A stretch of DNA of 64,000 nucleotides from Thermodesulfobacteriota bacterium (GCA_049323655.1 JBMONO010000034.1:113653-177652), one strand, 5' to 3'; shown: positions 5,658 through 57,533, counted from the first letter of the stretch. Numbers and translations: made by a program. The notes: generated from the sequence alone by a model not told the origin.

Positions 5658-7094
5658 ATGCTCAGAAAGAAGGAGGACGTTTGCGTGAAACCGAAGGAAA
5701 GACTTGCCATCGACCGCCAGAAACCCCGTGAACTTGATATTGCTGTTCGCATCAAAAATTTTGACGAGGTCGTCTTTGGCTATGATGAAGAAACCGCCAT
5801 TCGCGAGGCCAATCGCTGCCTGCAATGCAAAAAACCAACCTGCCGGGAGGGCTGCCCGATAGGCAACAACATACCGCAGTTCATCGAACAATTGCGCAAT
5901 CGACAGTTTGAAGAGGGGTACTGGACGATCCGGCAGACGAGCTCGCTGCCCGCAGTCTGTTCCCGTGTGTGTCCCCATGAGTTTCAGTGCGAGGGTGCAT
6001 GCATCCGTGGAAAAAAGGGCGATCCCGTAGCCATCGGCATGCTGGAGCGTTTTCTTGTCGACTGGATGGTAAAAAACAACAAAAACATAGCATCTCCTTG
6101 CGCGCTGCCGAAGAATAAAAAGGTGGCCGTCGTCGGATCCGGCCCGGCTGGCATGACAGCTGCCTATCATCTTGCTCACGAGGGCTATCACTGCACTATT
6201 TTTGAGAGTCTGTCCGTGTTCGGCGGCATGCTTGCTGTAGGCATTCCGCCCTACCGCCTGCCGCGGGATATCATTAACGCAGAGTTTGATGCCCTGAAAA
6301 ACTGCGGAGTGACGGTCCGCAACAACGTGGTCATCGGCAGGGACATCACCTTGACCCAGCTGAAGGAAAAAGAGGGATTCGACGCGATCTTCATCGGGGT
6401 CGGCGCCCATGTCAGCCGTAAGCTTGGCATCGAAGGCGAAGAGATGGATGGTGTCTATCATGGGGTGGATTACCTACGTCGGGTCTGCCTTGGTGAAAAG
6501 GTAAACATTGGCAAAAAGGTGGTGGTGGTGGGCGGCGGCAACGTGGCCATCGATGTGGCCCGCACCGCATTGCGCACCGGGTCTGATGACGTTTTTATCC
6601 TTTATCGGCGGACCAAAAAGGAAATGCCGGCCTCCATGGCGGAAATTCACCATCTGGAGGAGGAGGGCGTTCACGTCGAATATCTTGCGGCACCGCTCAG
6701 GCTGCACGGGGAAAATGGTCGGTTGCACCGGGTGGAGTGCCAGCGCATGCAGCTCGGCGAGTGCGATGCCTCAGGCCGCTGCCGGCCGGTGGTTGTCGAA
6801 GGCTCGGAATTTTTCATTGAGGCCGACGCAATCATTGCTGCCATCAGCCAGGATGTCGATCATACCGCCGACAGCGGCACCGACTTCGAGCTGACTCGCT
6901 GGCGAACCTACATTGTTGACCCGATAACCCTGCAGACTTCGGTCCCCTGGATCTTTTCCGGCGGGGATGCGGTTCTCGGGCCGCAGACAGCAGCCAAGGC
7001 AGTGTATCAGGGAAAGGTTGCGGCGGAATCAATTAAACGGTATTTAGAAGGGAGCGACCTGAAAGCGAACCGGGAAGTACGCAACGTATCATAG
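5658..7094 (+). CDS. GltD/NfnB-family NAD(P)H-dependent FAD/Fe-S oxidoreductase (glutamate synthase small-subunit-like)
   Basis: 478 aa. N-terminal Cys clusters (CLQCKKPTCREGCP, CSRVCPHEFQCEGAC). Two Rossmann motifs (VAVVGSGPAG, VVVVGGGNVAID). No large-subunit or NfnA partner lies adjacent. Confidence 0.8.
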   Translation: MLRKKEDVCVKPKERLAIDRQKPRELDIAVRIKNFDEVVFGYDEETAIREANRCLQCKKPTCREGCPIGNNIPQFIEQLRNRQFEEGYWTIRQTSSLPAVCSRVCPHEFQCEGACIRGKKGDPVAIGMLERFLVDWMVKNNKNIASPCALPKNKKVAVVGSGPAGMTAAYHLAHEGYHCTIFESLSVFGGMLAVGIPPYRLPRDIINAEFDALKNCGVTVRNNVVIGRDITLTQLKEKEGFDAIFIGVGAHVSRKLGIEGEEMDGVYHGVDYLRRVCLGEKVNIGKKVVVVGGGNVAIDVARTALRTGSDDVFILYRRTKKEMPASMAEIHHLEEEGVHVEYLAAPLRLHGENGRLHRVECQRMQLGECDASGRCRPVVVEGSEFFIEADAIIAAISQDVDHTADSGTDFELTRWRTYIVDPITLQTSVPWIFSGGDAVLGPQTAAKAVYQGKVAAESIKRYLEGSDLKANREVRNVS

Positions 7095-17526: not shown

Positions 17527-17859
17527 ATGAGACAGATAGTCATCGATGAACTCAGCCCGGAGGAACGGGCCAATCTTGACAGCTACCTGAAGAGGACGGT
17601 CAAACAGGGAGGAATGGAGGGGATGTTCTGGCTTGCCGTGCCGGATGATCTGCTTGCTTCCGCCCAGCAGGGCCATGAAGAATGCGGCCCGTTTTTTTTC
17701 GGCATTGAGCTGGCGGAGAAAAAACTCATTGTCGAGCTGCTGGTCCGCAGTCAGAGTAATCTCCATTGCTCGTGCATCAGTTACGCCAGCCCGGCCCAGC
17801 GAAATTTTCTCCTTGAATTCCTCGATCGGATGCTGACCGAAGAACGGATCAGGGCCTGA
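17527..17859 (+). CDS. Hypothetical 110-aa protein appended to the secretion cluster
   Basis: ATG 8 nt after the secretin stop. I do not recognise a family. The ORF-track start 17407 overlaps the secretin. Confidence 0.5.
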   Translation: MRQIVIDELSPEERANLDSYLKRTVKQGGMEGMFWLAVPDDLLASAQQGHEECGPFFFGIELAEKKLIVELLVRSQSNLHCSCISYASPAQRNFLLEFLDRMLTEERIRA

Positions 17860-17875
17860 TGGTTTGAACGAACCG

Positions 17876-17909
17876 AAAAAAAACTCCCGTCGGAGAGTTC
17901 CGACGGGAG
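17876..17909 (-). terminator. Rho-independent terminator of the tusA-dsrE-chp operon (hairpin usable from both strands)
   Basis: CTCCCGTCGG / CCGACGGGAG stem (17884-17893 / 17900-17909). The A8 run at 17876-17883 gives a T8 tail on the minus strand. Confidence 0.7.
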
Positions 17910-17954
17910 TCATGGCCCACCCGCAAGGGCGTCACCCTTGCGTGACTTATTTTC

Positions 17955-18128
17955 TCACCACCAGCAGATGGTCTGATCTGCCGCATAAAGCATGTCGACC
18001 AGCTTGTCGTAATCCGGGGACTCGACGTTGAGGTTGAAGGATTCGTTTTCACGTCCTTCGGAGACGATCGCCACCAGTTTTTTGACCTCATCATTGGGCT
18101 CGGAACGGTATACATGAAGGATTTTCAT
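17955..18128 (-). CDS. 57-aa TusB/DsrH-like mini protein (chp2 of the YTD-type cluster); absent from the ORF track
   Basis: ATG 18128 with AGGAGA upstream, TGA at 17955-17957. Translation: MKILHVYRSEPNDEVKKLVAIVSEGRENESFNLNVESPDYDKLVDMLYAADQTICWW. Both ends resemble TusB/DsrH (MLHTLHRSP...LLSEGDE ... DYTDFVRL...W). Confidence 0.6.
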   Translation of the reverse strand: MKILHVYRSEPNDEVKKLVAIVSEGRENESFNLNVESPDYDKLVDMLYAADQTICWW

Positions 18129-18167
18129 AGCGTGCTGTTCTCCTGGTAAAATCTTCAGTGAATCACA

Positions 18168-18488
18168 TCAGCTCTTGTCGCTGCGCATGATGCCGTAGGG
18201 AACGATGACATCCATTTCCCGCAGTTTCTGGCCGAGCTCCTCGAGGGTGATCTTGACCAGGCCGTACTTTTCGACATTGCCGTCGGGAATGCTGTAGATT
18301 TCGCCTTCCATGTCGCGGATCCAGTCGATGTTTTCCTTGTGGTATTCCGTCATCTGCTCTTCTTCGATTTCGTTGTTGATGACGACGCCGTAGGCGTACA
18401 TGTTTTCAACGGCAAGGCCAAGGGCGGATCTGACGCCATCCAGGATATACTCGCGGCTGGGGTACATAAAGCAAACTTTTTTTGACAT
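18168..18488 (-). CDS. DsrE/DsrF-fold protein (chp1 of the YTD-type cluster, DsrF/TusC-like)
   Basis: 106 aa. ALGLAVENMYAYGVVI block typical of the DsrE/F/H fold. No obvious active-site Cys. Lies between the dsrE-like gene and the mini dsrH-like gene. Confidence 0.6.
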   Translation of the reverse strand: MSKKVCFMYPSREYILDGVRSALGLAVENMYAYGVVINNEIEEEQMTEYHKENIDWIRDMEGEIYSIPDGNVEKYGLVKITLEELGQKLREMDVIVPYGIMRSDKS

Positions 18489-18498
18489 CGTCGCCTCC

Positions 18499-18816
18499 TT
18501 ATAAGGTCAGGTAGCAGTCATAGTCTTCGACAATGGCGCCATGCTGGGCCTGGGTCGCCATCTTTTCCTGGGTCAGACCGGCCGGAATATCGGCGACATC
18601 ATAGCCCATTTTCTTGTAACTGTCGGCGCAGATGGAGACATCGACGTTGTCCATGTCACAAAGCTGCTTGAACGTCGGACACTTGGTCAGATGGGTCGAC
18701 ATCCAGGTAAAGAACACCTTAACCTTCGCCCCCTTGGCAACACCGGCCTTGGTGATGCCGAGGATGTGTCGCATGTTCTGGGGAGACGTTACAAAAATCC
18801 CGATACTTTTTGCCAT
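18499..18816 (-). CDS. DsrE-like sulfur-relay protein
   Basis: 105 aa. DsrE/TusD-like fold with a conserved Cys in VDVSICADSYKKMGY. Adjacent to tusA. Confidence 0.75.
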   Translation of the reverse strand: MAKSIGIFVTSPQNMRHILGITKAGVAKGAKVKVFFTWMSTHLTKCPTFKQLCDMDNVDVSICADSYKKMGYDVADIPAGLTQEKMATQAQHGAIVEDYDCYLTL

Positions 18817-18906
18817 TTGCTTCCTCCATGTAGTTCAAATGATCGAACGACGCGACCAGCGCGGGTCGTGCCGCTCCGTCCGCCAAACAGGTGAGGGGTC
18901 AGTCAC

Positions 18907-19164
18907 CTATTTTTTCTTGATGAAGAAACGGAAGTAGCCGGATTCTTCTTTCTCGCCCACGAACTCATGACCGGCCCTGGTGCACCAGCCCGGCAGGTCG
19001 TTGCGGGAACCGGGATCGGTGCCGAGGATTTCGAGGATCTGGCCGGAGCTGATTTTGTCGATTTCCTTTTTGGTCCGCAGCAGGGGCATGGGGCAGCTCA
19101 ATCCTTTCGCGTCAAGGGTACGATCTGCTTTGATATCGGCCGGTGCTTGTTTAAAGTCGCTCAT
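18907..19164 (-). CDS. tusA: TusA-family sulfurtransferase
   Basis: 85 aa. Canonical LDAKGLSCPMPLLRTKK motif (CPxP). Confidence 0.9.
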   Translation of the reverse strand: MSDFKQAPADIKADRTLDAKGLSCPMPLLRTKKEIDKISSGQILEILGTDPGSRNDLPGWCTRAGHEFVGEKEESGYFRFFIKKK

Positions 19165-19549
19165 TGATTCCTCCTTAACAACGGGTTTTCATTAACTAGC
19201 ATTTGCGCTTCCACAAAGCCTGGCGAAAGATCACTCTGTGCACCAGGCAGCCATGATTGACAAACATTTCAGCGAAAATAACGACAAAAAATCACTTAAC
19301 AAGAAAGAAATGTTCTGTCAAGGCGAAAAATGAACGGTAATTCAGGCCTGGCCGAAACCTGTTGTTTGTACCTATTTCCTGAACGAAATCCCATTGATAA
19401 ACTTACTTGACAAATTTTTTTGCCGAGAGTAAAGGAGTTTGAATGACAAGTTTGGCACTTTATTAATGAGTTCCTTTGAGGAGAGGTTCAGGCGGGAGTG
19501 GCACCCCGTCTCGAGAGGAAACATTAATTCAATAATGGGAGAGAAGAGT

Positions 19550-20794
19550 ATGAGCGAGGAAAGCGTTTTCGGCAGCAAAGTGAAGGGGCTGTACAAGGCC
19601 CTCTGCCAGGAGGAGTGGAATGCCACGATGACCGGCATCATGGTGGCCCTGTTCTCCATCCTGATCATGGCGTGGTGGCGACCATGGGGGGCGGTGGGTG
19701 CCATCCGCAACTGGGGCGACTGGATCCTCTACGGCGTGGCCAGCGGTCTCGGCACCGAGGCTGGCTTCTTCACCTATTTCAGCGAAGCGCCGTCCGGCAT
19801 TTTATCAAATACCGGCTCGGTCATCGGTATCGGTTTTGTTGCCGGCGCCTTTATTTCGGCCTGCCTGGGCAATGATTTCGCCCTGCGCATTCCGCCGGTG
19901 CTGGAGATGTGCAAGGCCCTGGTCGCCGGTGTTTTCATGGGTATCGGCGCTGCCCTGGCCGGCGGCTGTAATGTCGGCGGTTTTTACAACGCCATCGGCA
20001 ATCTGTCCGCCCATGGCTTTGCCATGTGGCTCGGTCTCGTTATCGGTGTTATCATCGGTCTGAAATACATCTACTGGGAGATGGAGAACATCAGCTGGGG
20101 CAGCGGCGGTGCGAAGACCATTGAATTTCCCAAAGGGTTGAACGGGCTGCTGGGCGTCGTCGCCCTGGTTGCCCTGATCGCCGGCGCCTATATCTACGCC
20201 GGCAACGAGGACAGCGACTACATGGCCTCCCTCGGCGGCATCATCCTCATCGCCGCCGGACTCGGCTACTCCATGCAGCGCGGCCGCTGGTGCATGATCC
20301 AGGGTTTCCGTGAGCCGCACATGACCGGCAACTGCACCATGGCCAAATCCGTGGCACTGAGCATCTTTATCGTCGCCCTTGGTGCGGTGGTGCTCAAATA
20401 CGGGGTGCCGGTTCGGCTGGACGGCGATCCGGTCCTCGGCCCCATGAATTACGTCCGCGGCACCTTCGGCTGGGGCGGCGTGGTCGGCGGCATTGTTTTC
20501 GGTTTCGGCGCCATGCTGGCCGGCGGTTGCGGTACCGGCACCCTGTGGCGGGTCGGCGAAGGTCAGATCAAGCTGTGGATTGTCGTGCCGGTTTTTGCCG
20601 TCAGCAACTCCATCATCACCGCCTGGTTCATTGACCGCGAATTCGAGGCGGACGGTGTCCTTGGGAAGTATGTATTTCTGCCCGATGTCTTCGGTTTCGG
20701 CGGTACCCTTTTTCTCATCGGTGGCTTTCTGCTCGCCTGGTATCTCATTGTCGACTGGAACGAGGAATCGAACAAGTTGATCGTCGAGATGTAA
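19550..20794 (+). CDS. yedE: YeeE/YedE-family sulfur-compound transporter
   Basis: Polytopic membrane protein with repeated GGC(N/G)xG motifs (LAGGCNVGG, LAGGCGTGT). Start moved to ATG 19550, which follows GGAGAG. Confidence 0.85.
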   Translation: MSEESVFGSKVKGLYKALCQEEWNATMTGIMVALFSILIMAWWRPWGAVGAIRNWGDWILYGVASGLGTEAGFFTYFSEAPSGILSNTGSVIGIGFVAGAFISACLGNDFALRIPPVLEMCKALVAGVFMGIGAALAGGCNVGGFYNAIGNLSAHGFAMWLGLVIGVIIGLKYIYWEMENISWGSGGAKTIEFPKGLNGLLGVVALVALIAGAYIYAGNEDSDYMASLGGIILIAAGLGYSMQRGRWCMIQGFREPHMTGNCTMAKSVALSIFIVALGAVVLKYGVPVRLDGDPVLGPMNYVRGTFGWGGVVGGIVFGFGAMLAGGCGTGTLWRVGEGQIKLWIVVPVFAVSNSIITAWFIDREFEADGVLGKYVFLPDVFGFGGTLFLIGGFLLAWYLIVDWNEESNKLIVEM

Positions 20795-20960: not shown

Positions 20961-22811
20961 TTGATACCCATGAGAGGACCAAATTCGGGGCTGCGCCCCT
21001 TCATAACAGTCTCGGCGGACAAGCTGCTTTACGGCAACGAGGTGATCGCCATCGTCGATGACGAGATTGCCATTCGTGAGCCGCTGAAGATCTACTTCGA
21101 GCAACAGGGATTTCCCGTGGTTGATGCCATGGGAGGTGCGGAGCTGATGGACCTGCTGACCCGGCACAACATCGCCCTGATCCTGCTTGATATCGGCCTG
21201 CCGGATATGCAAGGCACCGCCCTGCTGCCCCAGATCAAAAGCAGCCATCCTGACACCTCCATCATCATGCTGTCAGGCCAGGCGGACATTCAGGTCGCCC
21301 TCGACTGTATCCGGAACGGCGCCGATGACTACATCACCAAACCGGTACAGTTCAACGAGATCCTGGTGGCGGTCAAAAAAAACCTGGAAAAGCGGCGACT
21401 CCTCGTGGAAAACCGCTCCTATCAGGAGGATCTGGAACAGGCTTATTTCCGCATCCAGTTGCTTCACCAACTCTCAGTGAAGATGAACTCCGTCTATCTC
21501 AGCTCCGGAGAACTTGACGAAATCCTTCGCGCCATTCTGGTCGGCATCACTGCCAATGAAGGACTGCGTTTCAACCGCGCCTTTCTCGCCATGCTTGACG
21601 ACCGGAATCAGCTACTGCAAGGGGCAATGGCCATCGGCCCGGGCTGTCGGGAGGAGGCTGCCAAGATCTGGACGGAAATGCGTGCCAAGGATCTGCAGTT
21701 CATCGATATCGTCAACAATCTCGGTAAAAATTGCGCCTTTGAAGACGACACGGTGAATCGGATTGTCAAGACGCTGCGTATCCCGACGGCCCGGGCTGAT
21801 CATATTCTGATCAGATCGGCGGCGGAGCGGGTCAGTTTCAAAGTGACAAACGGCTTGTCAACGATTCCGGTACCCGAGGACCTCATTGCCCTTCTTAACG
21901 AAGATACCTTTGTCGTGGTACCGCTGTTTGCACCCGGGCGCTCGATTGGTGTTATTATCGCCGATAATTACGTAACCAGAAAACCCATACCGGACGGCCA
22001 TGTCGGCGCTTTGGAGCTCTTTGCCAGCCAGGCAAGCCTGGCTATCGAGCAGAGTCGCTTGCAGCATGACATGCAGCGGAAGATAGTCGAGCTCGAAGAG
22101 GTGACCCACGAGCTCGACAAAAACAAGGATCTGCTGGTGGAGGCGGAGCGGTATGCCGCCCTCGGCCAGATGGCGGCTCAGATGGTGCATATCATCAGAA
22201 ATCCGATCACCTCGATCGGAGGAGTGGCACGGATCCTGGCGCGTAAAATAACCGGTGACGAGTGGAAGAAATATCTCGACGTCATGGTCAAGGAAACCGA
22301 TCGACTGGAGGCAACCCTGACCGAACTGTTCGATTTTGTCAGTCAACCCCAGGCGGAAAAGCAGATCGGCCCACTCTATCCGGTGATCAAAAAGACGTTG
22401 ATGCTGCTTCGCACCAGTCTGGTAAAGCAGAATATCACCTGGGATCTCCAGCTCCCCGAGCCGGATCCGCTGATCTGCATGGACAGCAAGCAGATTCGCC
22501 GGGTTTTTCTCAATATTTTACGTAATGCCATGGAGGCCATGCCTTACGGCGGCGTCCTGCGGATCAGTGCCAGCGTAGACGAAGAGATGGCACATATCTC
22601 CTTTCGCGATACTGGTACCGGCCTCAATGGCGCCTATCTCAGCAAGGCGGTGGAACCGTTTTTCACGACCAAAACGTATGGGACCGGCATGGGGTTGACC
22701 CTGGTCGACCGATTTGTCAAGGCCCATGGCGGGAATTTTACCCTGATACGCCACGATGACGGATTGGAGGTTCTGATCCATCTGCCGGTTGCCAAGCATG
22801 AAAATCTCTGA
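20961..22811 (+). CDS. Hybrid signalling protein: receiver - GAF - histidine kinase
   Basis: 616 aa. N-terminal REC domain (IVDDE...LLDIGLPDMQG). Central GAF-like region. H-box MVHIIRNP. HATPase motifs (RNAMEAM, DTGTGL, GTGMGL). Confidence 0.85.
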   Translation: MIPMRGPNSGLRPFITVSADKLLYGNEVIAIVDDEIAIREPLKIYFEQQGFPVVDAMGGAELMDLLTRHNIALILLDIGLPDMQGTALLPQIKSSHPDTSIIMLSGQADIQVALDCIRNGADDYITKPVQFNEILVAVKKNLEKRRLLVENRSYQEDLEQAYFRIQLLHQLSVKMNSVYLSSGELDEILRAILVGITANEGLRFNRAFLAMLDDRNQLLQGAMAIGPGCREEAAKIWTEMRAKDLQFIDIVNNLGKNCAFEDDTVNRIVKTLRIPTARADHILIRSAAERVSFKVTNGLSTIPVPEDLIALLNEDTFVVVPLFAPGRSIGVIIADNYVTRKPIPDGHVGALELFASQASLAIEQSRLQHDMQRKIVELEEVTHELDKNKDLLVEAERYAALGQMAAQMVHIIRNPITSIGGVARILARKITGDEWKKYLDVMVKETDRLEATLTELFDFVSQPQAEKQIGPLYPVIKKTLMLLRTSLVKQNITWDLQLPEPDPLICMDSKQIRRVFLNILRNAMEAMPYGGVLRISASVDEEMAHISFRDTGTGLNGAYLSKAVEPFFTTKTYGTGMGLTLVDRFVKAHGGNFTLIRHDDGLEVLIHLPVAKHENL

Positions 22812-48733: not shown

Positions 48734-49729
48734 ATGAGAGTCCTGTATCCCTTCATTGCAGTCTTAGCACTGATCGCGGTTGCCTTCTTGGGAGGGAAGG
48801 TAACGGGTCTGCAGTATCTGTTGGGGGTGGTGCTACCCTACCTGGCATTCGGTGTGTTCATTGTCGGTTTTGTCAACCGGGTCGTGCAGTGGGCAAAATC
48901 ACCGGTGCCATTCCGGATTCCGACGACATGCGGGCAGGAGAAATCGCTGCCTTGGATCAAGCGGAACAGGTTTGAATGTCCGCACACCAAGCTGGAGGTG
49001 GCAGTGCGAATGTTCCTGGAAATCGTGCTGTTCAGGTCTCTGTTCCGCAACACCAAGGCGGAGATCCATGACGGGCCGAAACTGGTGTACGGCTCCAGCA
49101 AATTTCTTTGGCTCTTTGCCCTGCTCTTTCACTACTCCTTTCTGGTCATCGTTCTTCGCCACCTGCGGCTCTTTACCGAGCCCATTCCCTTTTTCGTCCC
49201 CCTGATCGAGTTTGCCGACGGCATGCTGCAGATCGGCGCCCCGCGTCTCTATCAAACCGACATCATCTTTCTCGGGGCCCTGGCCTTCCTTTTCCTTCGC
49301 CGGGTGTCGCTGCGGCAGATCCGCTACATTTCCCTGCCGGCCGATTATTTTCCGCTCTTTCTCATCTTCGCCATCGGCGTCACCGGTCTGCTGATGCGGT
49401 ATGTCTACCGGGTGGACATCGCTGCGGTGAAGATGATCACCGCTGGGTTGGCCTCCTTTTCCCCGACCCTGCCGGAAGGCATTCACCCGATCTTCTTCAT
49501 CCATGTCGCCCTGGTGTGCACATTGATGATCTACTTCCCGTTCAGTAAGCTGATGCACATGGGCGGCGTCTTTTTGAGCCCGACCCGCAACATGTCCAAC
49601 AACAGCCGTGAGGTACGGCACATCAACCCGTGGAACGATCCGGCAATCAAGCCCCATTCTTATGCGGCCTACGAAGATGAGTTCAGAGAATTCATGAAAG
49701 GTGCCGACATCCCAGTGGAAAAGGAATAA
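48734..49729 (+). CDS. dsrM: DsrM, membrane di-heme b subunit (NarI-like) of the DsrMKJOP complex
   Basis: 331 aa polytopic NarI-like protein, immediately upstream of dsrK. Confidence 0.9.
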   Translation: MRVLYPFIAVLALIAVAFLGGKVTGLQYLLGVVLPYLAFGVFIVGFVNRVVQWAKSPVPFRIPTTCGQEKSLPWIKRNRFECPHTKLEVAVRMFLEIVLFRSLFRNTKAEIHDGPKLVYGSSKFLWLFALLFHYSFLVIVLRHLRLFTEPIPFFVPLIEFADGMLQIGAPRLYQTDIIFLGALAFLFLRRVSLRQIRYISLPADYFPLFLIFAIGVTGLLMRYVYRVDIAAVKMITAGLASFSPTLPEGIHPIFFIHVALVCTLMIYFPFSKLMHMGGVFLSPTRNMSNNSREVRHINPWNDPAIKPHSYAAYEDEFREFMKGADIPVEKE

Positions 49730-49734
49730 GGAAA

Positions 49735-51360
49735 ATGGCGATTCCAAAAGCAAATCAATTAGGTGTGAGTGTGGTAAGGGAGCCATCCCTTATGACCGGC
49801 GCCATCCCGAAAGAGGATTGGATGGATGTGCCGGCGGTTTTCAGGGAGGGCAATTTCTGTTACCCGGCAAAGAAATCCATTGTCGAATATCATAAGTTTC
49901 CGAACCCGCGCGAGTGGAGCCCCGATCAGGACGACTGGAAACTGCCGGAAGGCTGGGAAGAGATCATCCTGAAAGGCCTCAAGGAACGGCTCGACAAGTT
50001 CCGTTCCCTGCGCCTGTTCATGGACATCTGTGTCCGTTGCGGCGCCTGCGCCGACAAGTGCCACTTCTTCCTCGGCACCGGCGACCCGAAAAACATGCCG
50101 GTGCTGCGGGCCGAACTGCTGCGCTCGGTTTACCGTAACGACTTCACCACCGCCGGCAAGCTGCTCGGCAAGATGGCCGGCGGCCGGCCCATGACCTTCG
50201 GCGTGCTGAAGGAATGGTTCATGTACGCTTATCAGTGCACGGAATGTCGGCGCTGTTCGGTCTTCTGCCCCTACGGCATCGACACCGCCGAGGTGACCAT
50301 GATGCTGCGCGAGCTGCTCCACCTGGTCGGGGTCGGCACCAACTGGATCCTCGAGCCGGCGGCCAACTCGAACCGCACCGGCAACCACATGGGCCTCCAG
50401 CCCCATACCTTCAAGGACAACATCGGCTACCTGTGCGACGATATCGAGACCATCACCGGCATCAAGATCACCCCGACCTTTAACCGGAAGGGTGCCGAGG
50501 TGCTTTTCATCACCCCGTCGGCCGATGTCTTCGCCGATCCGGGCATTTACACCGCCATGGGCTACCTGCTGCTCTTTGAGCACATCGGCCTTGATTATAC
50601 CTGGTCGACCTATGCCTCAGAGGGCGGCAACTTCGGTCTCTTCACTTCGAACGAGATGATGAAGAAGCTCAACGCCAAGCAGTACGCCGAGGCCAAGCGG
50701 CTCGGGGTCAAGTGGATCCTCGGCGGCGAGTGCGGCCACATGTGGCGGGTGCTCCATCAGTACATGGACACCATGAACGGGCCGGCCGATTTCCTTGAGG
50801 TGCCGAAATCGCCGATCACCAACACGGTGTTCGACAACGCCGCCTCCACCAAGATGATCCATATCAGCGAGTTTACCGCTGACCTGATCAGAAACAACAA
50901 GCTCAAAATCGATCCGACCCGCAATGCCCACCGCATCCCCACCTGGCACGACTCCTGTAACACGGCCCGCGCCATGGGTCTGCTCGAGGAGCCGCGCTAC
51001 ATCCTTGACCACGTTGTTCCCAAATGGCACGAGATGCCGGAAAACACCATCCGGGAAAAGACCTTTTGCTGCGGCTCCGGCACCGGCCTCAACACCGGCG
51101 AGATCATGGAACTCCGCATGCGTTCCGGTCTGCCCAGGGCCAATGCGGTGCGTCACGTCGCCGACCGCTTCGGGGTCAACACCCTGGCCTGTGTCTGCGC
51201 CATCGACCGCGCCACCCTGTCGGCTCTGATGGATTATTGGAACCCGGATGTCAAGGTGTGCGGTCTTTCGGAACTGGTGGGTAACTCGCTCATCATGGAC
51301 GGCGAAAAAGTCAGGGAAACGGATCTGCGTTTTGATCCCCTGGTAGGAATGGAGGGATAA
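49735..51360 (+). CDS. dsrK: DsrK, HdrD-like catalytic Fe-S subunit
   Basis: 541 aa. Ferredoxin-type clusters (CVRCGACADKC, CTECRRCSVFCP) and CCG-domain cysteines (FCCGSGTG). Confidence 0.92.
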   Translation: MAIPKANQLGVSVVREPSLMTGAIPKEDWMDVPAVFREGNFCYPAKKSIVEYHKFPNPREWSPDQDDWKLPEGWEEIILKGLKERLDKFRSLRLFMDICVRCGACADKCHFFLGTGDPKNMPVLRAELLRSVYRNDFTTAGKLLGKMAGGRPMTFGVLKEWFMYAYQCTECRRCSVFCPYGIDTAEVTMMLRELLHLVGVGTNWILEPAANSNRTGNHMGLQPHTFKDNIGYLCDDIETITGIKITPTFNRKGAEVLFITPSADVFADPGIYTAMGYLLLFEHIGLDYTWSTYASEGGNFGLFTSNEMMKKLNAKQYAEAKRLGVKWILGGECGHMWRVLHQYMDTMNGPADFLEVPKSPITNTVFDNAASTKMIHISEFTADLIRNNKLKIDPTRNAHRIPTWHDSCNTARAMGLLEEPRYILDHVVPKWHEMPENTIREKTFCCGSGTGLNTGEIMELRMRSGLPRANAVRHVADRFGVNTLACVCAIDRATLSALMDYWNPDVKVCGLSELVGNSLIMDGEKVRETDLRFDPLVGMEG

Positions 51361-51364
51361 TTTT

Positions 51365-51760
51365 ATGTACGATAAAGGGAAAATTATTCCCGGCCTGATT
51401 ATTTTCGTCGGCCTGATGTTGTTTGCCATCTTCAACAACGCCGGGAAGAAAGTGGAGGCGCCCAAGGTTGAAAAACCGGTCGGGTACAAGGAATGTGTGA
51501 AGCCGGTCAAGTACATGAAGGAATCACACATGGAACTGCTCAATGTATGGCGCGATGAAGTCATCCGTGAGGGAAAACGCGAAATGATTGAAGTTGAGGG
51601 CAAACTGTACGAGAAAAGCCTGCAGAACGGCTGTATGCATTGCCATACCAGCAAGAAGAAATTCTGTGATGTTTGCCATACCTTTGCTTCTGTGTATCCA
51701 TACTGCTGGGACTGCCATATCGCACCACTGGCGGACAAGGCACTTGAGGAGGCGAAATAA
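51365..51760 (+). CDS. dsrJ: DsrJ, periplasmic tri-heme cytochrome c
   Basis: 131 aa. N-terminal membrane anchor. Three CxxCH motifs (CMHCH, CDVCH, CWDCH). Confidence 0.88.
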   Translation: MYDKGKIIPGLIIFVGLMLFAIFNNAGKKVEAPKVEKPVGYKECVKPVKYMKESHMELLNVWRDEVIREGKREMIEVEGKLYEKSLQNGCMHCHTSKKKFCDVCHTFASVYPYCWDCHIAPLADKALEEAK

Positions 51761-52602
51761 TGGACAGCTCACGAAGAACATTCCTGAAGATCGCCGGGAT
51801 TTCCGCAGTGGCAGGCGTTGCCGCTCCGGCTGCCCTGAACATGCTGATGAATAAAAACGCCCAGGCCTCGGCCGGCGGCGGCCACGGCGCTCCGGCTGCC
51901 GGCGGCCATGGCGGCCATGGTGAACCGGTTCCCACCGGCAAGCGGTACGGTCTGGTCATCGATGCCCGGAAATTTCATGAAACACCCGGGCTGGCAGAGA
52001 AGTGCATCGAGGCCTGTCACACCTATCATAACGTTCCGGACTTCGGCAACAAGAAGGACGAGATCAAGTGGATCTGGCAGGAACCCTTCATCAACACCTT
52101 CCCGGACGAAAGCCATTACAAGAAGGACGAGCAGATACTCGCCATGAAGTTTCTGGTTACCTGCAACCACTGCGACAATCCGCCCTGCGTGCGTGCCTGC
52201 CCGACCAAGGCAACCTTCAGGAACGAGGACGGGGTGGTCATGATGGACTTTCATCGCTGCATCGGTTGCCGCTTCTGTATGGCCGCCTGTCCGTATGGTT
52301 CACGCAGCTTCAACTGGCGTGATCCGCGAGGATCGCAGGATGGCGTTCCTTTCATCAAGAACCTGGAACCCAAGTTTCCCACCAGGATGCGCGGTGTCGT
52401 CGAGAAGTGCAGTTTCTGCGCCCATCGGCTGGCGCACAATCAACTGCCTCTCTGCGTCGAGGCATGTGGAGATACGAAGGCTATGGTCTTTGGTGACATG
52501 AACGATCCGAACTCCGAGGTATCCCAGGTGCTGCGGTCGCGGTTCACCATTCAACGGAAACCCTCCTTGGGCACCAAGCCCTCGGTCTTTTACATCATCT
52601 AA
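51760..52602 (+). CDS. dsrO: DsrO, periplasmic Fe-S subunit (Tat-exported)
   Basis: Twin-arginine signal SRRTFLK. Multiple ferredoxin Cys clusters (CNHCDNPPCVRACP, CIGCRFCMAACP). Confidence 0.9.
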   Translation: MDSSRRTFLKIAGISAVAGVAAPAALNMLMNKNAQASAGGGHGAPAAGGHGGHGEPVPTGKRYGLVIDARKFHETPGLAEKCIEACHTYHNVPDFGNKKDEIKWIWQEPFINTFPDESHYKKDEQILAMKFLVTCNHCDNPPCVRACPTKATFRNEDGVVMMDFHRCIGCRFCMAACPYGSRSFNWRDPRGSQDGVPFIKNLEPKFPTRMRGVVEKCSFCAHRLAHNQLPLCVEACGDTKAMVFGDMNDPNSEVSQVLRSRFTIQRKPSLGTKPSVFYII

Positions 52603-52613
52603 GGTGATCCGAT

Positions 52614-53795
52614 ATGTTAGAAAAATCGCTCAAAGGTAACGTGGGATACTGGGCCTGGGTTCTGCTCCTGCTCAGTGTCATTGGCGTGGGCGTCATCTGC
52701 TATGTTGTCCAGTTCAATTACGGTCTTGGCGCCACCGGCATGAGCCGGGACGTGACCTGGGGGGTTTACATCTCCCAATTCACCTTCCTCGTTGGTGTCG
52801 CTGCCGGTGGTCTGATGCTGGTGCTGCCCTACTATCTTCATCACTACAAGGAATTCGGTCGGATCACCATTCTCGGTGAGTTCATGGCCATTGCCGCTGT
52901 CGCCATGTGTCTGCTCTTCATCATGGCCGATCTCGGTCAGCCCATGCGGGCGCTCAACGTGGTCCTTCACCCGACCCCGAACTCCATGCTGTTTTACGAC
53001 ATGATCGTTTTGAACGGCTACCTGCTGCTCAACATCATCTGTGGTTGGGTCATTCTTCACTCGGAGTACAAGGGCATCAAGTATCCTTCCTGGGTCAAGC
53101 CCTTTATTTACATCTCCATCCCCTGGGCCGTCAGTATCCACACCGTCACCGCCTTTCTGTACTGCGGTCTGCCCGGCCGCCATTTCTGGCTTACCGCCAT
53201 TCTGGCCCCTCGCTTTCTCGCCTCCGCCTTTGCCGCCGGTCCTTGCCTGCTGATGGTAATCGCATTGATCATGAAGCAGGTGACGAAGTTTGACGTCGGC
53301 CAGAAGGCGCAGGACAAGCTGGTGACCATTATCGGTTACGCCGCTATACTGAACTTCTTCTTTCTCGGCTGTGAGATGTTTGTCGCCTACTACAGCCAGA
53401 TCCCCGGGCACATGCATACCCTCGACTACCTGTTCTGGGGCCTGACCGATCACACCACCGGTGAGGTCTACAATAATCTGGTGCCCTTTATGCGCGCCTC
53501 GGTGGTCATGGGTTTTGCCGGCATCGGCCTCATTTTTGTCGCCCGCAACAAAAAATCGGACGGACTGCTTGCCCTCTCCTGTATCCTGATCTTTGTTTCC
53601 TTCTGGATCGATAAGGGGCTTGGGCTGGTGCTCGGGGGTTTTGTGCCGAACGGTCTTGAGCAGATCACCGAGTATTACCCAACCGCGGTGGAGCTCGGTA
53701 TTACCGCCGGTATCTGGGCGACCGGTTTTCTGATCATCACCGTGCTTTACAAAGTGGCGATATCCGTCAAGCTGGAAAACGAGAAAACTGCCTAA
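52614..53795 (+). CDS. dsrP: DsrP, NrfD/PsrC-like integral membrane subunit
   Basis: 393 aa with about 10 TM segments. Last gene of the dsrMKJOP order. Confidence 0.9.
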   Translation: MLEKSLKGNVGYWAWVLLLLSVIGVGVICYVVQFNYGLGATGMSRDVTWGVYISQFTFLVGVAAGGLMLVLPYYLHHYKEFGRITILGEFMAIAAVAMCLLFIMADLGQPMRALNVVLHPTPNSMLFYDMIVLNGYLLLNIICGWVILHSEYKGIKYPSWVKPFIYISIPWAVSIHTVTAFLYCGLPGRHFWLTAILAPRFLASAFAAGPCLLMVIALIMKQVTKFDVGQKAQDKLVTIIGYAAILNFFFLGCEMFVAYYSQIPGHMHTLDYLFWGLTDHTTGEVYNNLVPFMRASVVMGFAGIGLIFVARNKKSDGLLALSCILIFVSFWIDKGLGLVLGGFVPNGLEQITEYYPTAVELGITAGIWATGFLIITVLYKVAISVKLENEKTA

Positions 53796-55202: not shown

Positions 55203-57533
55203 ATGGAATACAAGAGCATCCTCGACCTGATCGGCAACACCCGAATTGTGCCCATCAACCGCCTCAACCCGCACAAGAGCGTTACGATCTACGTCAAACT
55301 CGAATCCGGTAATCCGGGCGGCTCGGTCAAGGACCGCATCGCCCTGTCCATGATCGAAACCGCCGAAGAGCGTGGAGAACTGACCCCTGACAAGATCGTT
55401 CTGGAGGCGACCAGCGGCAACACCGGCATCGGACTCGCCATGGTCTGCGCGGTTAAGGGTTACCGGTGCCAGCTGGTGATGCCGGAATCGGCCAGTATTG
55501 AGCGGCGAAAGATCATGGAGGCCTATGGGGCCGAAATTCTCCTGACCCCCGGCAAACGAGGTACCGACGGCGCCATCGAGCGTGCCTATGCCATGGCCCG
55601 TGAGCATCCGGACCAGTATTTTCTCACCGATCAGTTCAACAACGAGGCCAACTGGATGGCCCACGTCAAGACCACCGGGCCGGAGATCTGGGAGCAGACC
55701 AATGGCCGGGTGACCGATGTCGTCGCCACCCTGGGCACCACCGGCACGGTGATGGGGATCTGCCGCTACTTTGCCGACAACCATCCCGAGGTGCGGATTA
55801 CTGCGGTCGAGCCCTTCCTCGGCCATAAGATCCAGGGCCTGAAAAATATGAAAGAGTCGTATAAGCCTGGTATCTTTGATAAAACAAAACCATTCCAGAT
55901 CATCAACGTCCCGGACGAGGAGGCCTTCCGGTACGCCCGCCTGCTGGCTCGCAAGGAGGGAATATTTGCCGGCATGAGTTCCGGCGCGGCCATCTGCGCG
56001 GCGCTGGCGGTGGCGGATCAATTGGCGGAGGGTATGATTGTTGTTATCCTGCCGGACAGCGGCGACAAATATCTCAGCACTGAACTTTTCACCGCCAAAA
56101 AGGAAAAAAAGGCAAAGACCACCGAAGGGCTCCGTTTTTTCAATACCCTCAGCCGCAAAAAGGAAATCTTCCAGCCCCAGTCCGGCAATCGGGTCACCTT
56201 CTACGCCTGCGGCCCGACCGCCCATGAACTGGCCAACCTGGCCCACTGTCGCCGTTTTGTTGTCGCCGATCTCATTCATCGGCTTTTGCGGCAGAAAGGC
56301 TATGATGTCCAGTACTACATGAACTTCACCGATCTCGACGACAACACCATCAGCGGCGCGGCCCGGGCCGGTCGGCCGTTGGCCGAGTTCACCGGATTCT
56401 ATATCGAGGAATTCATGAAGGACATGGAGGCCCTCCGCCTGCTGCCGGCCACCGGCTATCCGCGTGCCTCGGAGCATGTCGAGGAGATGATCACCATCGC
56501 CCACGAGCTGGTCCACAAGGGCTATGCCTATGAACAGCACGGCTCGGTGTATTTCGATATCAGCAAGTTCAGGAAGTACGGCAAGCTGTCCCGGGTGCCG
56601 CTCGACAAGATCAAGGTCGGCATGACCGTTGATCTCGACGACTACGAAAAGAACAATCCGCTGGACTTCACCCTGATGAAGCGCTCTACCCTGGCGGAGC
56701 TGAAAAGCGGCGTCTTTTATCAGACCGACCGGGGCAACATGCGACCCGGCTGGCATATCGAGTGCGCGGCCATGACCCTCCACTATCTCGGCGAGACCAT
56801 GGATATTCACACCAGCGGCCGGGATCTGCTCTTTCCCCATCATGAAAACGAAAACGCCATTGCCGAGAGCCTGACCGGCAAGCCGCTGGCCAGATTCTGG
56901 ATCCACAGCGAGTTACTGCTGGTGGAGGGCCGCAAGATGAGCGCGGACAACAACAACGTCATCACCCTGCGCCAGCTTGTCGAGCAGGGCTATACCCCCC
57001 GGGAGATTCGTTTCTTTCTCATCCGCAACCACTATCGCAAGCCGATCGATTTTTCGGTGAAGAAGCTCGACAGCGCGCGGGTGAGTCTCAAACGCCTCGA
57101 CGAATTCACCCGCAAGCTCCAGTGCCTGCCGCCGGATATGCCTCATCCCAAGGTGGCGGCCTATGTCTCGGATATGGAGGAGTCCTTTCAGGCCGCCCTT
57201 GAAGACGACATGAACGTCTCCCGGGCGATCGGCGCCATCTTCGACTTTATCAAGAAAGTCAATCCCGTCATCAGCGCAGGTCAGCTCGACCGGGACCAGA
57301 AGGAGTATATCCGCGAATCCCTGGAAAAGATCAACGCCATCCTCAATGTCCTGCGCCTGGAGGAGTGTCCGCTCGCCCCGGAGATCGACAGGCTGATCCG
57401 GGAGCGGGAGCAGGCCCGCAAGGAAAAGGACTGGGCCAGGGCCGATGATGTCCGCAACCGGCTTGCCGAGCAGGGCATCACGGTGATCGACACCGCCAAG
57501 GGACCGGTCTGGAAGGAAAACGACCGGGAGTAA
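55203..57533 (+). CDS. Fusion protein: cysteine synthase (CysK/CysM-type PLP enzyme) + full-length CysRS-like domain with degenerate class I motifs
   Basis: 776 aa in one frame. aa 1-297 are CysK-like (PLP Lys in GGSVKDR, TSGNTGIGLA, GTTGT). A Lys-rich linker TAKKEKKAKTTEG follows. From aa ~310 the sequence is CysRS-like (LRFFNTLSRKKE, GWHIECAAM, DIHTSGRDLLFPHHENE, anticodon-binding tail), but HIGH reads NLAH and KMSKS reads KMSAD. Confidence 0.85.
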   Translation: MEYKSILDLIGNTRIVPINRLNPHKSVTIYVKLESGNPGGSVKDRIALSMIETAEERGELTPDKIVLEATSGNTGIGLAMVCAVKGYRCQLVMPESASIERRKIMEAYGAEILLTPGKRGTDGAIERAYAMAREHPDQYFLTDQFNNEANWMAHVKTTGPEIWEQTNGRVTDVVATLGTTGTVMGICRYFADNHPEVRITAVEPFLGHKIQGLKNMKESYKPGIFDKTKPFQIINVPDEEAFRYARLLARKEGIFAGMSSGAAICAALAVADQLAEGMIVVILPDSGDKYLSTELFTAKKEKKAKTTEGLRFFNTLSRKKEIFQPQSGNRVTFYACGPTAHELANLAHCRRFVVADLIHRLLRQKGYDVQYYMNFTDLDDNTISGAARAGRPLAEFTGFYIEEFMKDMEALRLLPATGYPRASEHVEEMITIAHELVHKGYAYEQHGSVYFDISKFRKYGKLSRVPLDKIKVGMTVDLDDYEKNNPLDFTLMKRSTLAELKSGVFYQTDRGNMRPGWHIECAAMTLHYLGETMDIHTSGRDLLFPHHENENAIAESLTGKPLARFWIHSELLLVEGRKMSADNNNVITLRQLVEQGYTPREIRFFLIRNHYRKPIDFSVKKLDSARVSLKRLDEFTRKLQCLPPDMPHPKVAAYVSDMEESFQAALEDDMNVSRAIGAIFDFIKKVNPVISAGQLDRDQKEYIRESLEKINAILNVLRLEECPLAPEIDRLIREREQARKEKDWARADDVRNRLAEQGITVIDTAKGPVWKENDRE

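Follow-up and report, generated by a model that had tools for sequence, protein, structure and literature searches.

The YTD cluster, made up of a yedE-related gene, tusA, a dsrE-like gene plus a pair that encodes conserved hypothetical proteins (chp1 and chp2), was put forward as a marker of sulfur disproportionation by Umezawa et al. 2020, in the definition relayed by PMC13293266 and PMC12998232. This raises the question of what the two hypothetical proteins are and of what the five genes do together. We have examined it in a 64,000-nt stretch of DNA from a Thermodesulfobacteriota bacterium (GCA_049323655.1 JBMONO010000034.1:113653-177652; hereafter the window), in which an original prediction, made from the sequence alone, had read positions 17,955 to 20,794 as a YTD cluster whose chp1 looks DsrF/TusC-like and whose chp2 looks DsrH/TusB-like, so that the operon would encode TusA plus a minimal DsrEFH/TusBCD-like relay. 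We found that the locus is a five-gene sulfur-carrier cluster in which a membrane sulfur channel is combined with TusA and with a DsrEFH-like complex of three subunits in miniature, and that its host is an uncultured Desulfobulbales bacterium, this copy being known from a metagenome-assembled genome (MAG). The reading of the cluster as TusA plus a minimal DsrEFH is already published for the same family: Plum-Jensen et al. (ISME J, May 2026; PMC13293266) renamed the YTD cluster DsrEFH type II on the evidence of AlphaFold models, co-purification and sulfur transfer. What is new here is a possible homology between DsrEFH types I and II at the sequence level, a conserved hairpin between tusA and dsrE and a conserved His/Cys protein encoded next to the cluster.

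Organization and conservation of the five-gene cluster

All five genes of the YTD set are present in the window and are contiguous, in agreement with the original prediction:

19550..20794, plus strand: yedE-like gene, 414 aa, membrane sulfur transporter of the YeeE/YedE family (Pfam Sulf_transp, E = 6.5e-41)
18907..19164, minus strand: tusA, 85-aa sulfur carrier with Cys24 in a CPMP motif (SCPMP)
18499..18816, minus strand: dsrE type II, 105 aa, putative active-site Cys63 in SICADS
18168..18488, minus strand: dsrF type II (chp1), 106 aa, no conserved cysteine
17955..18128, minus strand: dsrH type II (chp2), 57 aa, a 6.7-kDa mini-DsrH with C-terminal ICWW

The four minus-strand genes form an operon running from 19164 to 17955, with gaps of 10 nt between dsrE and the 106-aa gene and of 39 nt between the latter and the 57-aa gene, and the yedE-like gene diverges from it. 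Mechanical calling starts the yedE open reading frame (ORF) at TTG 19439; the start adopted here instead is ATG 19550, which is preceded by a GGGAGAG ribosome-binding site and at which the homologues of nearly all related genomes begin with the same MS... sequence. As for nomenclature, the list given by Hashimoto 2022 for GF1_30690-30730 reads YedE, TusA, DsrE-2, Chp2, Chp1; if this list follows the locus tags, the chp1 and chp2 labels of the original prediction, which we keep here, are swapped with respect to earlier usage.

Conservation was scanned using one genome per species, and 336 genomes contained a relative of the 106-aa protein. Synteny was counted at the species level in the best 80 of them, all Desulfobulbales-like. 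The order tusA-dsrE-106aa-57aa is retained in 78 of these 80 genomes, and yedE adjoins the cluster in 73/80 loci, divergently in 67 and co-oriented in 6. In total, the 106-aa protein has 862 homologues, of which those carrying a name are all called “hypothetical protein”; one of them, ACOY4H_10255 from an NCBI “Thermodesulfobacteriota bacterium” MAG, is 100% identical to the protein encoded here. For the 57-aa protein 384 homologues were found, and those that bear a name are again labelled “hypothetical protein”; among the best 120, a length of exactly 57 aa is shared by 118, and an exhaustive profile search yielded 195 cluster representatives at 50% identity, nearly all of 54-64 aa. The E-F-H trio is also kept in 6/6 distant operons that include the upstream region, sampled via diverse representatives of the 57-aa protein (88-108, 93-112 and 56-64 aa, respectively), one of which looks archaeal. 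From the many homologues, the constant 57-aa length and the conserved gene order we concluded that the small ORFs are real genes and not chance ORFs.

Two of the distant loci deserve mention on their own. One (L084, 3378-4171) carries a type II dsrE-dsrF-dsrH trio (101, 97 and 56 aa) without adjacent tusA or yedE, in a neighbourhood that looks archaeal (HxlR, Memo, RNA ligase), which fits the remark in PMC13293266 that the archaeal arrangement differs. In the other (L171, 608-1264), the gene for a 218-aa DsrC-domain protein (PF04358) lies directly after the 57-aa dsrH homologue of a distant type II operon, and this supports a link of DsrEFH type II with DsrC.

The first two components of the cluster were recognized by standard searches. 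TusA matches the Pfam TusA family (E = 1e-26, 93 bits versus a cut-off of 28.6) and E. coli TusA (3lvj; E = 8e-14), with Cys24 aligned to the active-site Cys in RCPEP and kept in 78/79 loci. The transporter is collinear over its full length with NCBIfam YedE/FdhT, at 100.9 bits and thus far under the cut-off of 350, and it falls short of TsuA (85 bits versus 645), the TsuB score being 16 versus 147.5. In the alignment with the YeeE structure 6LEO its halves are swapped, residues 233-349 corresponding to YeeE 7-113 and residues 60-170 to YeeE 212-319, and the three functional cysteine motifs of YeeE are present in the swapped order (RGRWC248, GGC327, GGC140). Cys19, near the N-terminus, Cys140, Cys248 and Cys327 are invariant in relatives. 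On these sequence features, the protein may be described as a transporter that works like a YeeE-family sulfur channel and is neither TsuA nor YedE proper.

Each small protein best matches its cognate DsrEFH subunit

Standard Pfam/NCBIfam annotation misses two of the three small subunits and leaves the third below threshold. Neither chp1 nor chp2 has a Pfam or NCBIfam match, and the Pfam DsrE match of the dsrE product reaches 20.2 bits against a gathering score of 22.7 (E = 6.9e-4). Likewise, Pfam and NCBIfam scans of 50 chp1 relatives and 135 chp2 relatives gave a single match, to DsrH in one chp2 relative (E = 0.013), and HMMER profiles of all three small proteins found no relevant match among PDB sequences. 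Thus, the Pfam check suggested with the original prediction worked for TusA and Sulf_transp but stayed sub-threshold for DsrE and gave nothing for chp1 and chp2; because Pfam is blind to these two proteins, this check alone would wrongly refute their reading as DsrF- and DsrH-like.

Profile-profile comparison, in contrast, recovers the type II relationship without structure prediction. Canonical profiles comprised 80 metagenomic dsrEFH loci (48-68 sequences per subunit) plus E. coli TusBCD (K-12 record); Allochromatium vinosum DsrEFH sequences were taken from PDB alignments, and the 106-aa family profile was broadened with nine distant sequences before hhalign was run. Comparisons against two-sequence canonical profiles had been too weak. 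Results showed that each type II subunit best matches its cognate canonical subunit by hhalign, with probabilities of 90% for E, 84% for H and 7% for F. None of the 60 column-shuffled templates per comparison reached the observed score (null maximum 19.8), and reversed templates gave probabilities < 1%. A relationship to DsrF, though weak, and to DsrH was therefore found where the original prediction had looked for one.

The dsrE-like family aligned to canonical DsrE over 99 columns (E = 2e-6; score 40.4 versus a shuffled null of 12.2 ± 2.2), and the alignment places Cys63 on the canonical Cys78 of TusD/DsrE. Cys63 is invariant in 79/79 loci and is also present in six distant homologues; together with Cys24 of TusA in its CPMP motif, this locates the two cysteines that the original prediction had singled out. 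In public records, many close homologues of DsrE type II are called “peroxiredoxin”, probably through the spread of a wrong annotation.

The 57-aa family aligned to canonical DsrH with E = 7e-6 and a score of 31.7 (shuffled null 10.4 ± 2.0), compared with probabilities of 2.4% for DsrE and 0.6% for DsrF. The match runs through the C-terminal DY..V......W block. The terminal residues W56 and W57 are invariant, and at the position of Cys55 the wider family has Ser or Thr. By eye, the N-terminus MKILHVYRSEP resembles MLHTLHRSPW of DsrH/TusB, and a second segment, SPDYDKLVDMLYAADQTICWW, resembles a 20-residue stretch of the same proteins. Judged by its sequence, the 57-aa DsrH looks like a canonical DsrH from which the centre is missing; it is about 45 residues shorter and has both terminal motifs. 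An AlphaFold2 (AF2) model of the protein (predicted local distance difference test score, pLDDT, of 96) has a β-α-β-α-β fold; a Foldseek search of the PDB with this model returned generic α/β fragments and nothing specific.

The evidence for the 106-aa protein is of two kinds. Its AF2 model (pLDDT 94) has DsrE/DsrF-like structures as top Foldseek PDB matches (3pnx, 2fb6, 2qs7 and 2pd2; probability 0.87-1.0, E from 1e-3 to 0.16, template modelling score 0.53-0.64), and 2HY5 and 2D1P are not among the top 50. In hhalign the family scored best against DsrF (E = 0.005, 94 collinear columns), with 2.1% for DsrE and 0.2% for DsrH; the F-F score was 21.8 versus a shuffled null of 11.6 ± 1.9. As a yardstick, canonical DsrE and canonical DsrF match each other with 1.8% only. 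Cys6 is variable among related loci. Fold matches and hhalign thus bear out chp1 as DsrF/TusC-like, weakly on the sequence side, and the 84% match with its 60/60 beaten controls bears out chp2 as DsrH/TusB-like; both assignments are published for the same family.

PMC13293266 considered common ancestry of types I and II “difficult to infer”. From the above comparisons and from the hairpin described below we tentatively propose, as a possibility somewhat short of even, that DsrEFH type I and type II share homology that is visible in sequence profiles and that an intra-operon attenuator lies between tusA and dsrE.

Relation to known sulfur-transfer systems

The closest known system is DsrEFH type II as described in PMC13293266. 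There, the three proteins of Electronema aureum GS co-purify 1:1:1, Cys67, which corresponds to Cys78 of type I, is the only DsrE site that TusA persulfidates, and sulfur passes in vitro from DsrEFH to DsrC with no reverse transfer; neither TusA nor DsrEFH is loaded by thiosulfate. The syntenic trio was reported from 985 genomes in 20 phyla, with reductive-type dsrAB in ~74% and dsrAB in ~79% of the carrier genomes. The cluster studied here has the same five genes, tusA-dsrE-dsrF-dsrH forming one operon beside yedE, shares the subunit sizes (DsrH ~6.7-6.8 kDa) and the single conserved DsrE cysteine, and is likewise found in Desulfobulbales, where the family occurs alongside reductive-type dsr genes; nothing essential differs. 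Predicted masses of 6703 Da for DsrH, 12320 Da for DsrF and 11.6 kDa for DsrE (30.6 kDa for the trio) may be set beside the E. aureum values, which are similar for DsrH (6814 Da) and DsrF (12725 Da), and beside the published 33 kDa of the tagged heterotrimer. In addition, DsrE shares 72% full-length identity with a protein of Desulfurivibrio alkaliphilus (P0340), and D. alkaliphilus AHT2 is listed in PMC13293266 as a “TusA-DsrEFH type II” carrier. The likeness to the E. aureum system is drawn from the gene set, the masses and this identity, and the present copy comes from an uncultured MAG with the NCBI annotation “hypothetical protein”.

Two attempts to reach the E. aureum sequences themselves were set aside. 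Searching the homologues for the mass of E. aureum DsrH (6814 Da) gave P0380 and P0452, neither of which is a cable-bacterium record, and the match was discarded as coincidental. The Cys67Ser mutagenesis primers can be read as “RH-C-ADS”, which would match SICADS; the reading frame is ambiguous and this was not used as evidence.

Canonical DsrEFH (type I), represented by A. vinosum 2HY5, also consists of three paralogous α/β subunits, its DsrE Cys78 is equivalent in position to Cys63 here, and both types accept sulfur from TusA and donate it to DsrC. The two differ in size, the subunits here having 105, 106 and 57 aa versus medians of 130, 136 and 102 aa in the 80 canonical loci, and in DsrH, which has lost the central part while keeping the N-terminal ILH..SP and the C-terminal DY..V....W blocks. 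Moreover, the subunits here do not reach the Pfam thresholds of type I (DsrE PF02635, DsrH PF04077); yedE and tusA are the genes to which the operon is linked, whereas type I sits inside dsrABEFHCMKLJOPNRS; and type II is associated with reductive DsrAB but type I with oxidative DsrAB.

Three further systems share parts of this arrangement. E. coli TusBCD (2D1P) belongs to the same fold family and has the same subunit logic, with TusD Cys78 corresponding to Cys63 here and TusA as donor; in contrast to the present system, its sulfur goes to TusE and MnmA for the thiolation of tRNA, its subunits are larger and it lacks a transporter as partner. The YeeE/YeeD pair (TsuA/TsuB; 6LEO, 8J4C) resembles the cluster in its Sulf_transp channel with three conserved cysteines and in the TusA-family gene beside it. 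The transporter here has its halves swapped (YedE-like), lies far under the TsuA cut-off and is encoded divergently, and its partner, unlike that of YeeE, is a true TusA followed by DsrEFH. Finally, DsrE3A-DsrE2B-TusA of Metallosphaera cuprina (PMC4175335) is also a cytoplasmic sulfur-trafficking pair in which DsrE-family proteins and TusA are co-encoded; it differs in handling thiosulfonate from tetrathionate, in its linked Hdr-like genes and in having no DsrF- or DsrH-like mini-subunits.

A proposed sulfur relay and its alternatives

The DsrMKJOP complex, whose presence in the same window the original prediction had noted, is encoded 28 kb from the cluster, with unrelated genes between:

48734..53795, plus strand: dsrMKJOP, membrane complex acting on DsrC, all five subunits above NCBIfam equivalog cut-offs

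The scores were 518 bits for DsrM, 722 for DsrK, 157 for DsrJ, 292 for DsrO and 463 for DsrP. Given the gene anatomy, the cognate subunit matches, the invariant Cys63, the synteny, the AF2 folds, dsrMKJOP in the window and the published biochemistry, the cluster is very probably a YedE-TusA-DsrEFH type II sulfur relay, and the subunit-wise hhalign tests together with PMC13293266 uphold what had been predicted of it.

In such a relay, the YedE-like channel would bring sulfane-sulfur species across the inner membrane along its conserved cysteines, as homology to YeeE suggests, with polysulfide, persulfide and possibly thiosulfate as candidate substrates. Cys24 of TusA would then take up the sulfur as a persulfide, a step seen in vitro for the E. 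aureum orthologue, and pass it to Cys63 of DsrE within a DsrE-DsrF-DsrH heterotrimer of ~30.6 kDa; both the complex and the transfer are documented for E. aureum only. The 106-aa and 57-aa proteins would serve as non-catalytic scaffold subunits of this heterotrimer. From DsrE, sulfur would go to DsrC and then to DsrMKJOP and DsrAB, dsrAB and dsrC presumably lying outside the window, and the tusA-dsrE hairpin described below would probably let TusA be made in excess of DsrEFH. As we gather from the literature, flux would most likely carry sulfur into a reversed reductive-type dissimilatory sulfite reductase (DSR) pathway; this would amount to sulfur oxidation and would include disproportionation's oxidative half.

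DsrEFH type II has been proposed to let “sulfate-reducer” gene sets run the DSR pathway backwards, oxidising sulfur. If this is true, the reading of genomes changes for roughly one in five of the sulfate reducers and disproportionators now known. To this picture the present locus adds little, being one more uncultured Desulfobulbales carrier with genes annotated “hypothetical”.

Four points weigh against the relay reading. Complex formation and sulfur transfer are extrapolated to this host from cable-bacterium proteins. Those E. aureum proteins were unreactive with thiosulfate (PMC13293266), which bears on the substrate of YedE. The sequence link between chp1 and DsrF is weak (7% probability), barely above that between chp1 and DsrE. 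Lastly, dsrAB and dsrC are not within the 64-kb window.

The main competing view is the YTD proposal in its original form (Umezawa 2020), which takes the cluster for a module dedicated to sulfur disproportionation and for a marker diagnostic of that metabolism. Expression data speak for it: in D. dissulfuricans the complete set of five proteins was detected, each of them at higher abundance when thiosulfate was disproportionated (PMC9751629), and TusA was up in the proteomics of D. thermophilus. The cluster also occurs in all surveyed elemental sulfur (S0) disproportionators among Desulfobacterota and Nitrospirota, close relatives of the present locus include the S0-disproportionating strain M19 (L021) and Desulfurivibrio, and Novak et al. 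2026 still favour YTD among the best disproportionation candidates. However, the same authors deny that it is a marker on its own, the genes are carried by 25/63 cultured disproportionators and also by many sulfate reducers unable to disproportionate (PMC13293266, whose authors oppose the marker reading), and cable bacteria carry and express the cluster while oxidising sulfide. The marker role repeated in the original prediction therefore stands as a published proposal that is contested, and occurrence is not confined to organisms able to disproportionate. We consider a dedicated disproportionation module doubtful; the idea is compatible with the relay, which may serve the oxidative half of disproportionation.

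The remaining explanations assign the cluster to biosynthetic sulfur or selenium. Assimilatory uptake of thiosulfate or sulfur in the manner of YeeE/YeeD (TsuA/TsuB), with the small proteins assisting delivery to biosynthesis, would account for the three essential YeeE cysteines being kept, for the match to YeeE structures and for the TusA-family gene adjoining the transporter, as in tsuAB. Yet the TsuA and TsuB scores of 85 and 16 bits compare with cut-offs of 645 and 147.5, in its architecture the transporter follows YedE collinearly instead of YeeE, thiosulfate does not load E. aureum TusA or DsrEFH, the family co-occurs with dsrAB in ~79% of genomes and a DsrC-domain gene is attached to one operon, which makes this explanation very unlikely. 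A relay of the TusBCD kind that supplies sulfur for tRNA 2-thiouridine or for cofactors (E. coli TusA-TusBCD-TusE-MnmA) appears scarcely credible: subunit-wise homology to TusD, TusC and TusB equals that to DsrE, DsrF and DsrH and TusA is common to both, but the operon has its link with a membrane sulfur transporter instead of ribosomal or tRNA genes, neither mnmA nor tusE adjoins it in the 80 loci, the phyletic pattern follows dissimilatory dsr genes and transfer to DsrC takes place in vitro. As for a YedE/YedF-type pair in selenium metabolism, YedE/FdhT is the best NCBIfam match of the transporter and TusA weakly matches YedF; both scores are far below their cut-offs (101 versus 350 bits and 41 versus 79), TusA scores better on the TusA family, and no selD, selA, selB or selenoprotein genes lie nearby, so this pairing has almost no chance of being the right one.

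Control regions of the cluster

Besides the genes, three non-coding features of the locus were mapped:

18841..18880, minus strand: terminator-like stem-loop in the 90-nt tusA-dsrE spacer (18817-18906), ΔG -20.2 kcal/mol
19165..19549, between the divergent genes: control region of 385 nt, AT-rich, with two back-to-back σ70-like promoters (predicted)
17882..17911, minus strand: intrinsic terminator of the tusA-dsrEFH(II) operon, a 13-bp stem (8 G-C pairs) closed by a loop of 4 nt, then TTTTTTCGGT

The stem-loop between tusA and dsrE ends 24 nt before the dsrE start. It was surveyed in 80 loci, namely this window and those of 79 related genomes, with the criterion of <= -10 kcal/mol and a T-rich tail, and such a hairpin occurred in 57/80 tusA-dsrE spacers versus 5/80 shuffled ones; the loci are mutually related and the counts are non-independent. 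The distance from hairpin to dsrE has a median of 26 nt (interquartile range 24-29), and the stem sequences differ between clades. Among the loci the tusA-dsrE spacer measures 46-160 nt, most being of 67-106 nt, and the dsrE-dsrF gap 6-19 nt. These data suggest that the hairpin is an intra-operon attenuator holding TusA in excess of DsrEFH, one that might respond to a signal.

With yedE starting at ATG 19550, the divergent spacer spans 19165-19549. Its GC content is 41-47%, versus about 52-63% in the flanks, so that the divergence of yedE from a four-gene minus-strand operon across a 385-nt AT-rich region is as originally described. On the tusA side, the predicted promoter has a -35 TTGACA at 19317-19322 and a -10 TTAAGT at 19294-19299 (minus strand); on the yedE side, -35 TTGACA lies at 19407-19412 and -10 TAAAGG at 19430-19435 (plus strand), with a 17-nt spacer in both cases. 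Both TTGACA-N17 promoters are conserved in the closest 10-13 genomes, and the divergent spacer is long in all relatives (273-833 nt). Two leader blocks 5′ of yedE, TAATGAsTTCCTT and GAGGAAACATTAA, are conserved in ~10 close genomes only. A riboswitch or structured leader in this spacer was considered and rejected: an Rfam search of the 385 nt found no family, folding z-scores of +0.56 and -0.04 gave no energy support, and RNAalifold on the leader hairpins returned a positive covariation term and hence no covariation support. We kept these blocks as promoter/leader conservation. At the other end of the operon, the strong terminator predicted at 17876-17909 was found, as hairpin and T-run, at 17882-17911.

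Genes in the neighbourhood

Two genes flank the cluster:

20961..22811, plus strand: hybrid sensor kinase REC-GAF-HisKA-HATPase (Pfam domains), directly downstream of yedE
17527..17859, plus strand: 110-aa protein converging on the operon terminator, with His50, Cys53, Cys81 and Cys83 invariant

The hybrid sensor kinase is found beside the cluster in 48/80 loci and, from its position, is a possible regulator; the conserved hairpin and this kinase are testable leads on the regulation of the operon. The 110-aa His/Cys protein is conserved beside the cluster in 37/80 loci, and searches for Pfam, NCBIfam or PDB relatives returned none. It is an unconfirmed candidate for the “chp3” of Novak 2026.

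Elsewhere in the window, a 776-aa ORF (55203-57533, plus strand) joins a pyridoxal phosphate-dependent, cysteine-synthase-like domain (PALP, 9e-74) with an entire cysteinyl-tRNA synthetase (tRNA-synt_1e, DALR_2 and CysS_C), an unusual fusion. A gene at 5658-7094 (plus strand), located between ATP synthase genes and a type II secretion/pilus block, encodes an NAD(P)H oxidoreductase that resembles GltD/SudA (Fer4_20 and Pyr_redox_2 domains) and whose B subunit was not identified; SudhAB figures among the candidates discussed for disproportionation.

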